From: Gemmatimonadales bacterium
Lineage (GTDB): Bacteria > Gemmatimonadota > Gemmatimonadetes > Gemmatimonadales > GWC2-71-9
Assembly (NCBI GenBank): GCA_037189525.1
Contig: JBBCJC010000002.1
Coordinates: forward strand, 1,088,001-1,152,000
Length of the DNA: 64,000 nucleotides
Reading direction: 5' to 3'
The position numbers were made by a program, and so were the translations under genes. This document shows positions 10,012 through 59,456 of the stretch, piece after piece; the stretch's first letter is position 1; each line of letters begins with the position of its first letter. The notes below the pieces were generated by a model, which was not told the DNA's origin, did no database searches, and was given only the letters and a program-made list of their open reading frames with translations.

Positions 10012-10036
10012 GGCCGGAAAATAATCACGGTCATTG

Positions 10037-10065
10037 TTGATTTTCCGGTATCATTGGGGTATCGT
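10037..10065 (+). promoter_or_regulatory. Putative sigma70 promoter giving a leaderless transcript
   Basis: TTGATT (10037-42), 17 bp spacer, TATCGT (10060-65); ATG at 10073 lies at the expected start site with no SD. Confidence 0.55.
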
Positions 10066-10072
10066 CTTTTTG

Positions 10073-10435
10073 ATGCGGTCCTGTCTCAACCCCCTCGCGC
10101 GGCTGCGCCGGTCCCTCGGTCCGGTTGCCGTAACCCTGCTCCTCTTCTTCGGAGTGGCGCAGGCGGTTGCGGCGTGGCATGTCGCGCGCGGGACAGACCA
10201 GGATCGTGTCTCGGTTGCGGCCGCCGACGTGTCGACGCCTTCGGGCGGGGGGCATGTCGACGACGGCTGTGCGCTCTGCTCGACGCCGGTGCAGCCAACC
10301 TTTGCGGCCGTTCTGATCTCGATCGTCGTCGAGATGGCGCCGCGCCGGATGGCTCCGCTCGAACCCACTCTCCTTCCCGCATCTCCCATCGTACTCGGCG
10401 CCAGCGGACCTCGCGCGCCACCAGCCGTTTCCTGA
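10073..10435 (+). CDS. DUF2946-like / CruR-like leader peptide (signal anchor, CxxC, C-terminal RAPP)
   Basis: 120 aa: hydrophobic N-terminus, HVDDGCALC, ends GPRAPPAVS; directly upstream of a TonB-dependent receptor. Confidence 0.78.
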   Translation: MRSCLNPLARLRRSLGPVAVTLLLFFGVAQAVAAWHVARGTDQDRVSVAAADVSTPSGGGHVDDGCALCSTPVQPTFAAVLISIVVEMAPRRMAPLEPTLLPASPIVLGASGPRAPPAVS

Positions 10436-56481: not shown

Positions 56482-56751
56482 TCACCCTCCGCAGCTGACC
56501 GAGCGGGGCACGACTCGGCCGCAGGCGATGATGTCATCCATTCCGCGCGCCATCGGTCCGCATGCGGCCGTCTGCGCCGTTTCGGCGGCGGCTTCCTTGG
56601 TCGGCCCCGACGCCTTGGCGCAACGGCTCCCGCCCCGGAAGTCGACGCAGACTTCGCAGGTGATCTGCTGGGGCTTGAAGCTCGTATACGCGAGGATGCC
56701 GATGAAGACCGCGACGATGATGGCAAAGACGGCCGAACGACTGAGGCGCAT
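56482..56751 (-). CDS. Small membrane-anchored six-Cys protein
   Basis: N-terminal TM, then CEVC...C...C...C...C; 4 nt upstream of yggT. Confidence 0.7.
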   Translation of the reverse strand: MRLSRSAVFAIIVAVFIGILAYTSFKPQQITCEVCVDFRGGSRCAKASGPTKEAAAETAQTAACGPMARGMDDIIACGRVVPRSVSCGG

Positions 56752-56816
56752 GGAACCCAACTCCGCTCCGGGTGATGTTGCTTGGCAGTAGCCGGCGAAA
56801 TTAAGCTTGTCGGACG

Positions 56817-57182
56817 ATGCAGGGACTCGTCAGCCGACTGATTTTCGTAATGGCCCTCCTGGGGATGCTGTCGTCAACCGCCCCCCGGCCGGAGCCGCAC
56901 TGCGCCCCCCAGCCAGCGGCCGGGACCTCGCAGCACGATCATCACGGCCACTCGGCCAAAGATACCGACGGCGCCCGGGAATGTCCTCATTGCCCGCCGG
57001 TCGAATGCGGGCGGCATCTGCAGTGCAGCGTGTCCGCGGATCCTGCTTCGGGCGAGTTGGCGCCGCTCCCCGTGCCGGACGGAAACCTCGAAGCGCAGCG
57101 TCTGGCCGCCCAGGTGGCCCGCTCCCTTTCTCTGAAACCACCCACACCTCCACCCAACGCCTCCCGTCACACGAACGTCTAG
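56817..57182 (+). CDS. Putative metal-sensing leader peptide (signal peptide, His/Cys cluster, C-terminal PPTPPP)
   Basis: 121 aa: hydrophobic N-terminus, HC, QHDHHGH, ECPHCPPVECGRHLQC, KPPTPPP seven residues from the stop. Confidence 0.72.
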   Translation: MQGLVSRLIFVMALLGMLSSTAPRPEPHCAPQPAAGTSQHDHHGHSAKDTDGARECPHCPPVECGRHLQCSVSADPASGELAPLPVPDGNLEAQRLAAQVARSLSLKPPTPPPNASRHTNV

Positions 57183-57214
57183 TCGTTTCATCGTTCCATT
57201 GACGAGGAGTAGTC

Positions 57215-58009
57215 ATGATTGGGCAGGAATGGACTCGGCCGCTGGCCGTGGTCTTGGCGTTGGCAATCGGGGTCGCACCCCTTGCTGCGCAAATCGATTA
57301 TCGTAACCTGGACGTCGGTCGCCCGGTTCGGGTCACCGATGCCTATCCCGTCGAGCGTTTTGCGTTCGAGCTCTCGCTTCCCTATGCCGCCGGCCGTGGT
57401 GATGGTGCGGTGCGGCACACCGTGTCGCCCCATCTCGAGTATGGCATCCATCGGAACCTGATGGTCGGGGTCGGTGTCGAGGTCGACCTCCATCGCACCG
57501 GAGGCAGCGCGGGCCTGGCAGCCGCGGAGATCGGCGCCTTGTGGAACGTTCGGAGGGAAACTCCGTCGTTGCCGGCCATTGCCTTCAGTCTCGAGGCTGC
57601 GCAGCCCTTGCGAGACGGGCGATTTGGTCGCGATGTCGAAGTCACTCTGACCGGGCTGGCGACCCGGTCGATCGGCCGGTCACGCCTCCACCTGAACGGG
57701 GTGGTGGGCCTGCTCGTTCCGGAGGCTTCGCACCTGGGCACACCGTGGTGGGCCGGGGTGGCCTGGGATCGGACCCTGTTTCGCAGCAGCACGCTGGTCG
57801 TCGCGGAGGTCGTGGTCAATCGTGATGCCGGCGCGCTTCCGGTTACCTGGAGCGCCGGGGCCGGGGTTCGCCGCCAGTTGACCCCGACGGTTGTGGGCGC
57901 CATCGGTGTGGCCCAGGCGCTCGACGATTTTGATGCGGGAACCTCGCTCACGGTCTCCCTGAGTCATGCCTTTGGCGTTCGCAGCCTGATGCGACGAGGT
58001 GTCCGATGA
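57215..58009 (+). CDS. Putative outer-membrane beta-barrel protein
   Basis: Signal peptide LAA-Q, RP.R.TDAYPVE, alternating amphipathic strands, SLSHAF near the end; SD GAGGAG. Confidence 0.7.
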   Translation: MIGQEWTRPLAVVLALAIGVAPLAAQIDYRNLDVGRPVRVTDAYPVERFAFELSLPYAAGRGDGAVRHTVSPHLEYGIHRNLMVGVGVEVDLHRTGGSAGLAAAEIGALWNVRRETPSLPAIAFSLEAAQPLRDGRFGRDVEVTLTGLATRSIGRSRLHLNGVVGLLVPEASHLGTPWWAGVAWDRTLFRSSTLVVAEVVVNRDAGALPVTWSAGAGVRRQLTPTVVGAIGVAQALDDFDAGTSLTVSLSHAFGVRSLMRRGVR

Positions 58010-59016
58010 AAACCATCATGACGATGCTGCTCATGGCCTTGGCGCCGGGTCTACTGACGGCACAGGGCGGGCGTAACGAAGAGTTCTACTATCCGGGCGC
58101 CTTCAACTGGCAGTTCCTGCGCAACTATCCCGAGGCGGCCCGCCTCTTCAACGCGTTCGACTACGGGCACGCGATTCTGTATGAGCGGTTGCTGGCCGAC
58201 CCGGCGGGGTCCGTCGAGCAACTCGAAGACCGGGAGTTCCGCTATCTGGTCGGCGATCTGTTGCGGCGTCCGCCCCGCTTCTCGGTTGCGGAGGAAGCGA
58301 TCATGCCCCGCTACAGCCGGATGGCATGGCGTGCCAAGCTGATGTTCGAACGGGCCCACGTCCTGCACCGGCAGATCTACGATGTCTACGCCGACGAGCG
58401 CTTGCCGAGCGATCAGCAGACGACTCTGGTCGAAACACTGATCAATCGCTACCTCGCCGACCGGGACTATGCGTTTACCGATCGACCCAAGGCCATGGCG
58501 CTGATGGACGAGCAGTATTTCAGCAAGGTGTTCCGGGTCGGGTATCCCAAGTTCAACGGCTTGATCTGGGCCTATCACTGGCTCCAGGTCGGTCTCTACG
58601 AACCGTTGATCGCCGAGCAGGACGCGGCGGCCAAGCAGGCCGGAGTGAAGGAAACCGTGGCGCGGTTCTGGGCGATGGTGGATGGAGCGCCCGGTACCTT
58701 GCCCAGCGTCATGCCGATGGGATCAGCGGTTGCTCCGCACTTCAGCGAGCGCCACCCGCGAGCCGCGATCATCTTCGACAATCTGCACATGATGCACGAC
58801 ATCATTTCGGATGTCCTCGCGTCGCCCAAGGTTGCTGCTGCGGACAAGGCGAGGGTCATCGAGGAAGCGCTGGATGAATTCCAGAATCCGACCAGCAATG
58901 TGATCGACCTGGAGCACTGGCGGATGATGGCAGATCACATGGGTGGGGTCGACAAGATGGGAGGGGTTGCTGGGCGACCGGCTGCTGCCCCGCGACCCAG
59001 CCACCAGCATCACTGA
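58006..59016 (+). CDS. Secreted His/Met-rich helical protein with internal duplication
   Basis: Signal peptide; FDYGH, AHVLH, YHWLQ and LHMMHD helices; tail MMADHMGGVDKM...SHQHH; ATGA coupling to the upstream gene. Confidence 0.82.
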   Translation: MKTIMTMLLMALAPGLLTAQGGRNEEFYYPGAFNWQFLRNYPEAARLFNAFDYGHAILYERLLADPAGSVEQLEDREFRYLVGDLLRRPPRFSVAEEAIMPRYSRMAWRAKLMFERAHVLHRQIYDVYADERLPSDQQTTLVETLINRYLADRDYAFTDRPKAMALMDEQYFSKVFRVGYPKFNGLIWAYHWLQVGLYEPLIAEQDAAAKQAGVKETVARFWAMVDGAPGTLPSVMPMGSAVAPHFSERHPRAAIIFDNLHMMHDIISDVLASPKVAAADKARVIEEALDEFQNPTSNVIDLEHWRMMADHMGGVDKMGGVAGRPAAAPRPSHQHH

Positions 59017-59025
59017 TCCAGGCGC

Positions 59026-59070
59026 AAAAAACCGGCGGCTCCGGATCGTTCGGAGCCGCCGGTGTCTTTT
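59026..59070. terminator. Bidirectional intrinsic terminator
   Basis: AAAAA, then ACCGGCGGCTCCG/CGGAGCCGCCGGT 13-bp stem, then GTCTTTT; lies between convergent genes. Confidence 0.8.
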
Positions 59071-59081
59071 ACTGGAAGAGG

Positions 59082-59456
59082 TCAGTTGCCGGCGATGCCG
59101 GGGGTCGCCTCGGGCGCAATGCCATCGGTGATCGGAACGATGCCCGCCCGCCAGCCGCTGGCGAAGACGACCGTCAGGCGGTAACCCAGCGTGTCGACTT
59201 CGACGCTGCGGACCCCGGGCAGGGTGCGCGCATATTCGGCGGCTTTCGTCGTCTGGACCGCCCGCGCCTCGTGCGACTGACCCCCATCCCACTGGGCCAG
59301 CGCCCGGCCGATTGCCACGGCCCGCGCCTGTTCGGTGCCGTACCTGGCAAACTGCTCGGCCGGGATCAGGCCGGCCTGATCCGAGACTTTGGAGTCGAGA
59401 TCGTAGAGGCGGCAGCCTCCGGTCAGGGCCAGGATGGCCAGCAGGGTTCCACGCAT
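59082..59456 (-). CDS. Hypothetical lipoprotein
   Basis: MRGTLLAILALTGGC lipobox-like; 124 aa. Confidence 0.68.
   Translation of the reverse strand: MRGTLLAILALTGGCRLYDLDSKVSDQAGLIPAEQFARYGTEQARAVAIGRALAQWDGGQSHEARAVQTTKAAEYARTLPGVRSVEVDTLGYRLTVVFASGWRAGIVPITDGIAPEATPGIAGN

Follow-up and report, generated by a model that had tools for sequence, protein, structure and literature searches.

A stretch of 64,000 nucleotides from a Gemmatimonadales bacterium (assembly GCA_037189525.1, contig JBBCJC010000002.1, positions 1,088,001 to 1,152,000 of the forward strand; hereafter the window) contains an operon in which a gene for a small leader peptide, having an export signal, a cysteine cluster and a polyproline tail, precedes the genes for an outer-membrane β-barrel and for an exported protein with six conserved histidine residues (the His protein). 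The preferred reading, to which we give a probability of about 0.6, is that the leader is a translational ON switch of the CutF type, heading an envelope module for copper excess. An earlier note on the same DNA had proposed an arrest leader of this kind, and its claims are taken up where the evidence on them is given. Judged from its occurrence in sequenced genomes, the operon is a module of the phylum Gemmatimonadota.

The leader gene

The leader open reading frame (ORF; 56817-57182, plus strand, as are all features of the operon) encodes 121 amino acids and consists of an export signal, a His-Cys pair, a His loop, the cluster CPHC-x4-C-x5-C, a spacer of 43 residues, the tail PPTPPP and the stop codon. 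Its N-terminus is basic and then hydrophobic, and the motifs are located at residues 28-29 (HC), 40-45 (HDHHGH), C56-P-H-C59, C64, C70 and 108-113 (PPTPPP), so that the ORF, the signal, the His/Cys cluster and the proline codons at 57138-57155 were all correctly placed in the earlier note. The four cysteines C56, C59, C64 and C70 (56982-57026), which are kept across the leader alignment, are a candidate sensor of metal or disulfide status, and the PPTPPP codons are the candidate stall site.

Homologous leaders retain the signal-like N-terminus, HC, the His loop, CxHC-x4/5-C-x5-C and a tail of the PP[T/S/I]PPP type, and the linker sequence varies freely. From the last Cys to the last Pro, 38 of 40 leaders have 42-44 residues, the two exceptions being an additional Cys in one leader and a frameshift in the other; in a second set of loci the distance is 41-44 residues in 8 of 11 leaders. 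A count of CXXC among the homologues is circular, because CXXC belonged to the rule by which leaders were searched. A basic and hydrophobic N-terminus was found by a hydropathy heuristic in all 33 leaders with an assigned start. In addition, the window leader differs from that of locus L001 at 43 third, 19 first and 12 second codon positions, an excess at the third position which is the pattern expected of a coding gene. By these marks of constraint the leader is a real, constrained gene.

A -10-like hexamer, TAAGCT (56802-56807), lies 9 nt 5' of the leader ATG and probably marks the start of a leaderless transcript. The pattern TANNNT occurs 5-10 nt upstream of an in-frame ATG or GTG in 34 of 37 leader ORFs, with about 2.8 candidate starts tried per leader, as compared with none among the 40 barrel starts and a rate of 1.5% at random ATG/GTG codons; its position suggests that the leader mRNA is leaderless.

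A predicted hairpin over the next ribosome-binding site

The barrel gene's Shine-Dalgarno (SD) sequence, AGGAG (57205-57209), stands 5 nt before the ATG at 57215 and belongs to the 3' arm TGACG-A-GGAG (57200-57209) of a hairpin whose 5' arm, the anti-SD CTCCCGTCA (57161-57169), lies within the final codons of the leader. An inner helix, GAACG (57173-57177)/CGTTC (57192-57196), spans 57173-57196 and holds the leader stop codon (57180-57182) in its loop. Both helices, which the earlier note had drawn, are present in the minimum free energy structure as well as in the centroid structure.

The evidence that the hairpin is more than a product of chance is comparative. The anti-SD set consists of the 40 leader loci with an SD-led barrel start (L069 was left out, its SD start not being picked), and in 28 of these the main partner of the SD is found at +6 to +14 nt, counted from the final Pro codon. 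The profile of complementarity in the leader loci peaks solely at +3 to +12. Duplexes of cognate arms have a mean of -14.8 kcal/mol as against -10.9 +/- 0.45 kcal/mol for permuted arms, a difference reached in 0 of 100,000 permutations, and the same holds after thinning to 27 leaders of less than 45% identity (-15.0 against -11.2; 0 of 100,000). Moreover, the native codons pair more strongly than synonymous recodings in 35 of 40 loci, and in the window the cognate duplex of -14.2 kcal/mol compares with a mean of -6.7 kcal/mol for recodings, 2 of 300 being as strong. Across the leader family the anti-SD is thus, by computed pairing, fixed in position and covarying, which is the outcome that the earlier note had named as a check of its proposal.

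When a ribosome is modelled on the leader with the 3' edge of its footprint set some 13 nt from the P-site, the family median cost of opening the SD zone is 10.3-11.6 kcal/mol while the P-site is at least 3 codons before the last Pro, and 6.1 kcal/mol when it is on the last Pro. In this family model the SD is exposed by a pause late in the PPP and not by one at the first PP. The SD is also more occluded in leader loci than in loci headed by a two-component system, with 10.4 against 7.6 (p 0.003) in 90 nt and 10.6 against 7.3 (p 0.008) in 120 nt.

Several results tell against a hairpin switch. The window hairpin, at -28.5 kcal/mol, has a z of -0.46, and 62 of 200 shuffles are equally good; the stability of the single hairpin was consequently dropped as evidence, and it is for this reason that a comparative test was needed. 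The modelled stall in the window lowers the opening cost modestly, from 8.5 to 6.4 kcal/mol, with SD pairing going from 0.80 to 0.75, and most of the drop falls 4-5 codons before the last Pro. Folding with and without the ribosome mask, as the earlier note had suggested, gives a drop at the PPP in the family and a modest, earlier one in the window. Furthermore, swapping arms with the nearest relative weakens the pairing in just 22 of 36 cases and strengthens it in 14, the difference in occlusion between leader and two-component loci loses significance over 70 nt (p 0.12), and related loci are non-independent in all tests of hairpin and occlusion.

The order of events proposed for the switch is as follows. 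The transcript would begin at the leader ATG, and the leader, as its signal suggests, would be exported during translation. With the ribosome at PPTPPP, the Cys/His cluster would be 43-57 residues from the peptidyl transferase centre, a spacing that is observed and that would let the cluster approximately reach the periplasmic side of SecYEG. About 50 extended residues bridge the peptidyl transferase centre and the periplasm according to PhoA work (10.1101/2020.07.06.189464), and a folded domain exerts pull at about 70 residues (10.1101/2021.02.06.430026). Given this distance and the observed spacing, the CxxC, 54-57 residues out at the stall, would have just reached the periplasm, with the last Cys still close to the exit of the channel. 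Metal, most likely copper, bound at the cluster would lengthen the pause on the last prolines, by analogy with CutF, and the paused ribosome would mask the anti-SD in the next 2-5 codons and free the barrel SD, a step for which geometry and covariation have been computed. The barrel would then be translated, and the His protein after it through coupling at an ATGA overlap. The products would be a gated outer-membrane channel of small size and, below it in the periplasm, a metal-binding His/Met protein that probably binds, stores or redox-processes copper.

The same hairpin could serve a simpler purpose if there were no regulated stall: it would do no more than couple barrel translation to termination of the leader, itself a small metal-binding protein of the periplasm. 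In favour of this, the leader stop lies 2-8 codons past the last Pro, where a ribosome that terminates would cover the anti-SD as well, and the leader has been lost in several lineages. However, an invariant PPxPPP tail is more than coupling requires, as is a spacer of 42-44 residues of free sequence, and we regard this explanation as unlikely, though as a serious competitor. In the decayed leaders of L039, L054 and L058 the proline tail, the stop and the hairpin region are retained and the Cys part is lost or frameshifted; L039 and L054, in which only tail and hairpin are left, fit plain coupling and a regulated stall alike.

Relation to CutF and CruR

By its sequence features the leader would work like CutF, that is, with an exported Cys sensor, a PPP, an SD-hiding stem and a short spacer. 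CutF, encoded in cutFOG of Rhodobacter capsulatus (PMC9973294; 10.1101/2025.02.05.636593), is likewise a small exported upstream ORF with a Cys motif and a C-terminal PPP, and it further shares a stem-loop hiding the next SD, a short intergenic region, elongation factor P (EF-P) and a copper-related context. An EF-P gene is present here. The window leader and all 33 leaders with an assigned start are shorter than 150 aa, have PP in the last 15 residues and are followed by a gene on the same strand within 1000 nt, as in the filters for CutF-like leaders of Ozturk 2023; a stem-loop over the next SD that a ribosome on the prolines can open is found by computation in the family and is weak in the window alone. 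CutF has CxxxC, whereas the window leader has HC...CxHC-x4-C-x5-C with Cys spacings of x2, x4 and x5. Here the anti-SD sits in the last leader codons, unlike that of CutF, and the genes controlled are a barrel and a family-less His protein in place of a Tat-exported multicopper oxidase. Also unlike CutF, the mRNA is apparently leaderless and a two-component system can take the place of the leader.

CruR (Bp2923) of Bordetella pertussis, a DUF2946 (PF11162) protein whose arrest has been shown (PMC12992588), is also encoded by the first gene of an operon and has a CxxC, an export signal and an outer-membrane protein encoded downstream (PMC9426467). Its Cys-to-Pro spacing of 45 intervening residues is tightly conserved and functionally important (PMC9426467), and a tight spacing is common to CruR and the present family (42-44 in 38/40). 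The CruR tail, however, is RAPP, and the window leader ends in PPTPPP with no RAPP. The cruR intergenic region is 162 nt (PMC9426467), as compared with 32 nt in the window and 32-87 nt in leader loci generally; CruR acts through Rho termination when copper relieves the arrest, and the mechanism proposed here is a translational anti-SD. The 32-nt intergenic region argues against Rho-dependent termination in the window. Although the comparison with CutF made in the earlier note holds for the design, its DUF2946-type label does not extend to Pfam membership: none of 40 leaders passes the PF11162 cut-off of 23.7 bits, three are below threshold (best 14.7 bits, E 0.052), and the window leader gives no match. 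The word 'Gemmatimonad' is absent from the main texts of PMC9973294, PMC9426467 and PMC12992588, although supplementary lists to PMC9973294 or to 10.1101/2025.02.05.636593 could still name members of this leader family.

Distribution and exchange of the control element

Among GTDB genomes 473 relatives of the His protein were confirmed, and the locus counts given here use the best 80 of these 473, all of which are from Gemmatimonadota. The barrel gene lies directly 5' of the His gene in 78 of the 80 loci, the other two reaching a contig edge, and in 6 of the 78 the two are fused with the barrel N-terminal. The His gene is carried by 35 of 151 sampled genomes of the phylum, a tally that includes the unpublished genome G055, which enters into no other claim. 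Distant homologues of the His protein exist at about 30% identity; one, on a low-GC contig, is a cupredoxin fusion near genes for cytochrome c, an extracytoplasmic function sigma factor, an OEP protein and a CusB-like protein, with no adjacent barrel gene.

The head of the operon is variable. An intact leader with signal, Cys cluster and PPxPPP is found in 39 of the 80 loci, and lack of such conservation, which the earlier note had named as refuting its proposal, is thus not what was observed. A divergent OmpR-type response regulator, usually with a kinase, is found in 21 loci, a remnant or truncated leader in 4 and neither in 16, 9 of which are cut by contig ends; counts of regulators exclude such cut loci where stated. 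In none of the 80 do leader and two-component system occur together. The second set, of 30 loci, consists of the window itself, 7 duplicates and 22 others, and the latter comprise 11 with leaders, 1 with a two-component system, 2 with truncated leaders and 8 with neither. On a quick maximum-likelihood tree of 74 concatenated barrel and His sequences (from the 80 loci plus the window), the label leader needs 12 changes and the label two-component 10, at least 8 and at least 7 of these changes being forced by well-supported branches.

A box CAAG..TAA..TTGA occurs in 12 of 21 two-component promoters and in 0 of 36 leader loci, the pattern being derived from those very loci. A conserved direct-repeat box, TCAAG-N-TAAT-N-TTGA-N-TAA, lies between regulator and barrel, for example in L022, L060, L074 and L077, and L028 has the box without an adjacent regulator.

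A point against a switch on which the operon depends is that the leader is cleanly gone, with no replacement, in four loci at the chromosomal site of the window (L098, L100, L104 and L110, all among the 8 of the second set with neither element), where the barrel begins about 100 nt from the divergent gene and two loci carry a damaged His gene. The leader, which in the earlier note gates the operon, heads 39 of 80 loci and is not obligatory, as a two-component system replaces it in 21 and it is deleted or decayed in others. No description of the cargo genes or of the swapping of regulators was found in the literature searched, most subscription papers lying outside its reach.

The metal and the polarity of the switch

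In 13 of the 80 loci the gene 3' of the His protein encodes a P1B ATPase; in 11 it encodes DUF2231, in 5 cytochrome b and in 4 CopCD. Copper genes (P1B ATPase, CusA/B, CopCD, multicopper oxidase, NosZ or cupredoxin) are found within 33 of 80 loci, or 33 of the 59 away from the window's site; neighbour families were assigned from one representative per cluster of at least 2 ORFs, with 179 singleton ORFs left unscanned. A tested P1B ATPase passes TIGR01511, and three resistance-nodulation-division pumps pass TIGR00914. A CPH motif, which marks the CopB type, is present in 13 of 23 ATPase ORFs.

The control elements that replace or overlie the leader are informative on polarity. The best match of the divergent regulators is TIGR01387 in 12 of 13 tested (222-253 bits, cut-off 279), and that of the kinases is TIGR01386 in 7 of 7 (229-254 bits, cut-off 293). 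Heavy-metal two-component systems and regulators of the CsoR type are switched on by metal excess. Since regulators of these types respond to metal excess, the leader, like CutF, is most likely ON under the same condition. In 5 of 33 loci the leader promoter is covered by a G-tract pseudopalindrome that resembles CsoR operators (PMC3902906), and one such genome has a box of this type before copZ-csoR as well. The distant cupredoxin fusion near OEP and CusB-like genes and the His- and Met-rich C-terminal tails of the His protein also speak for copper. The genomic context thus favours copper excess with induction over uptake, and copper as the signal is most likely on that context.

Against copper it must be said that no copper gene is near any of the 21 loci at the window's chromosomal site, that all two-component matches to TIGR01387 and TIGR01386 are below the curated cut-offs, and that the window has no CsoR box, CsoR not being found in G000 (98% complete). 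The presence of csoR was also dropped as support for the box, because csoR is found in 5 of 5 box-less genomes as well.

Some of these facts would fit a stall and anti-SD switch of the same design responding to another metal (Zn, Ni or Co) or to the thiol-disulfide status of the periplasm. The His-rich loop with 4-5 Cys suits Zn or Ni equally, TIGR01387 and TIGR01386, missed by all matches at their cut-offs, span Czc, Sil and Cop regulators, disulfides are invoked in the CutF model, and none of the 21 loci at the host site has a copper gene. However, the neighbours elsewhere are of copper type (TIGR01511 above its cut-off, CopCD, multicopper oxidase, NosZ and cupredoxin), the CsoR-type box is common to leader loci and copZ-csoR, and the C-terminal tails of the His protein are rich in Met and His, so that a signal other than copper is unlikely.

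With copper as the signal, the polarity could still be that of CruR: metal would relieve a default stall, the operon would be ON when copper is scarce, and its two envelope proteins would import copper. A small outer-membrane channel with a periplasmic binding protein is a layout like that of uptake systems, the neighbours CopCD and NosZ can serve uptake or the assembly of cuproenzymes, and the geometry of the anti-SD is the same whichever condition triggers stalling. Set against this are the response of the replacing and overlaid regulators to metal excess, the efflux-type P1B ATPase as co-transcribed next gene in 13 loci, a tail with PPP as in CutF and not RAPP, and an intergenic region of 32-87 nt as compared with 162 nt in cruR. 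Import under starvation is accordingly quite unlikely in our view, and by analogy the polarity is probably opposite to that of CruR.

The outer-membrane barrel

The barrel gene (57215-58009) and the His gene (58006-59016) overlap through ATGA, and a 15-bp hairpin with T-runs on both strands (59031-59063) follows as a probable bidirectional terminator. The scan for such hairpins gave 2 matches against a shuffle mean of 1.8, so that the count alone is not significant; the position and stem length support 59031-59063. Flanking genes diverge from the operon or converge on it from the other strand, and hence the three ORFs form one unit. The earlier note did not recognise the target genes, and indeed neither these two products nor the leader, as encoded in the window, has a Pfam or NCBIfam match at E 0.1. 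Searches of PDB sequences with both alignments gave at best E 0.016 and 0.31, and the ESM Atlas contains unnamed Gemmatimonadota clusters alone, with a low recognition score.

The barrel protein has 264 aa, a signal peptide and a conserved N-terminal segment that probably fills the lumen of the model. The AF2 model (mean predicted local distance difference test, pLDDT, 88.7) has a fold like that of FapF and of Pput2725 (COG4313, PF13557), including that segment: VIA-align gave Z 23.2 with a root-mean-square deviation (rmsd) of 2.6 over 214 aligned residues for FapF (PDB 5O65; model residues 4-229) and Z 20.8, rmsd 2.9, over 211 residues for Pput2725 (PDB 4RL8; model residues 10-229). Identity to these proteins is 11-12%, and the window differs from both in lacking an amyloid or aromatic-degradation context and in having a His-protein partner, sometimes fused. 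The window barrel has no PF13557 match at E 0.1; the homologues P0004 and P0011 are above the cut-off, and 32-34% of the two nearest Atlas clusters carry PF13557. PcoB/CopB is likewise a small outer-membrane barrel of copper-resistance operons. It is a weaker structural match (PcoB, PDB 7PGE, Z 12.5, rmsd 4.2, 182 aligned), there is no match to the CopB models of Pfam or NCBIfam, and the window barrel has no conserved Met or Cys. In an alignment that omits L026 for an internal stop, most of the invariant residues carry a charge, and they include a single His but neither Met nor Cys, so the barrel is not an obvious copper-selective pore, which counts against a copper function.

As FapF is a secretion channel and the best structural match, and as the barrel is N-terminal in fusions in 6 of 78 loci, the barrel could serve as a FapF-like or inverse-autotransporter-like export device or anchor for a His protein acting at the cell surface. 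The unfused His protein, however, carries a signal peptide of its own, Pput2725 comes nearly as close as FapF, the conserved N-terminal segment probably plugs the lumen, and the distant homologue of the His protein described above has no barrel gene alongside, which makes such a role very improbable.

The His protein

The His protein (58006-59016) is an exported, all-helical and internally duplicated protein of 336 aa, belonging to no family, with H55, H118, H121, H191, H261 and H264 conserved together with Asp, Glu and several Met residues. Its AF2 model has a pLDDT of 93.2 and a predicted template modelling score of 0.90, and its halves align with each other at an HHalign probability of 99.2, four helices having a common pattern, D52/H55/E60, H118/H121/D126, H191/Q194/E199 and H261/H264/D269. 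The name 'His-rich' of the earlier note suits the six conserved His and overstates the bulk composition, which is 3.9% His. Of 87 diverse homologues, 46 have all six His, and 14 of these 46 are below 36% identity. The long C-terminal tails of 26 homologues contain 16% His plus Met, as compared with 3.7% in neighbouring housekeeping genes.

No Foldseek match was obtained with the model at E 0.001, and VIA-align over 48,161 chains gave a best Z of 4.9 (rmsd 5.2, 124 aligned), a result that says nothing on the newness of the fold, nor on whether it differs from those of known helical His proteins. Mean-field direct coupling analysis of 291 sequences (effective number 146) recovered a few symmetric helix pairs and is too weak to place the His residues. 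A Pfam scan of 75 homologues gave scattered weak matches only (OpuAC in 9/75). Type-3 dicopper proteins (hemocyanin and tyrosinase), hemerythrin-like proteins and CopM/DUF305 proteins are helical and pseudo-two-fold with 3+3 His, as is the His protein. It differs from them in its HxxH (i, i+3) spacing in four pseudo-equivalent [D/H]xx[H/Q]xxhY[D/E] helices, and no sequence match to the Pfam families of type-3 copper, hemerythrin or CopM proteins was found.

The His protein may hold a periplasmic dimetal site, with copper as the probable metal. A point against this is that 33 of 87 homologues retain two or fewer of the six His; by their sequences this His-poor subgroup is probably non-binding. 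A subgroup comprising P0040, P0041, P0044, P0046, P0065, P0077 and relatives has lost the His and kept the fold motifs, and has Met-rich tails and weak STI1/DP matches.

Homologues of the His protein are fused to cupredoxin, cytochrome c, DUF2231, SnoaL-like and PQQ-propeller domains (partner fusions P0097, P0145, P0003 and P0132), and cytochrome b or DUF2231 is encoded by the next gene in 16 of 80 loci. Tentatively, and with more doubt than confidence, it can be suggested that the His protein founds an undescribed periplasmic family with a six-His dimetal, probably dicopper, site, being a redox enzyme or a store that lies beneath a FapF-like channel of its own and hands electrons on to cupredoxin, cytochrome c or b, or DUF2231 partners. 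If this is true, the barrel and the His protein form a novel type of copper-handling system in bacteria, in which control has repeatedly passed between leader and two-component system.

Other leader-like genes and neighbouring ORFs

A second leader-like ORF of the window (10025-10435, plus strand) has a signal-like N-terminus, CALC, a GPRAPP tail and 48 residues from last Cys to last Pro; it precedes by about 100 nt a gene for a TonB-dependent receptor (best match the ZnuD model, below its cut-off) and looks like a classical pair of the CruR type. In genome G000, a His-rich leader with one Cys and the end FFRPPRQ (C5:598561-599029, plus strand) is followed by a gene for an exported protein of 464 aa, with a P1B ATPase (C5:605579) close by; the leader has a weak DUF2946 match (E 0.05) and is a candidate Zn/Co/Cd switch. 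Leader-like ORFs are also seen in G000 on the minus strand of C5 (reverse offsets 1091976-1092531), with CHCIGAC...PPSHAPP before a 788-aa exported protein, and at C2:1208483-1208813 (plus strand), with CAVC...PARSPP before an ABC-ATPase-like gene, so that by sequence pattern G000 may hold five such leaders. A scan of the genome by rule only was rejected, its 40 matches being mostly spurious frames. Other Cys/Pro leaders lie directly 5' of OEP-CusB(-CusA) operons at L021:4238-4630 (minus strand) and L028:8726-9061 (plus strand), and L021 has two leaders back to back.

Beside the operon, a divergent ORF of 92 aa (56482-56760, minus strand), membrane-anchored and with four Cys and no family match, stands before yggT-DUF167-metH at 19 loci of the same site. 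An ORF for a family-less lipoprotein-like product (59082-59453, minus strand) converges on the terminator in the window and at homologous sites, and in several relatives cutA1 lies between it and the operon.

Meaning of the leader and its cargo

Nascent-chain metal sensing of the CutF and CruR type would be extended by this operon to the Gemmatimonadota, through a distinct leader family. The design of the switch is already known from other copper systems, and the controlled genes are the new part. The operon also constitutes a natural experiment, in which the same two cargo genes stand, depending on the genome, under a stalling leader or a two-component system, with at least 7-8 forced changes of label, and this interchange predicts the polarity of the leader without experiment. 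In addition, the relay of periplasmic binding to the ribosome is listed as open in the CutF preprint (10.1101/2025.02.05.636593), and the fixed spacer of 43 residues and the position of the anti-SD define exact mutations by which signalling from the periplasm to the ribosome may be probed. The larger prize would be the cargo, and in it the His/Met protein, which has a confident model and no family, comes from a phylum common in soil and water, and is a candidate for a new copper enzyme or store.

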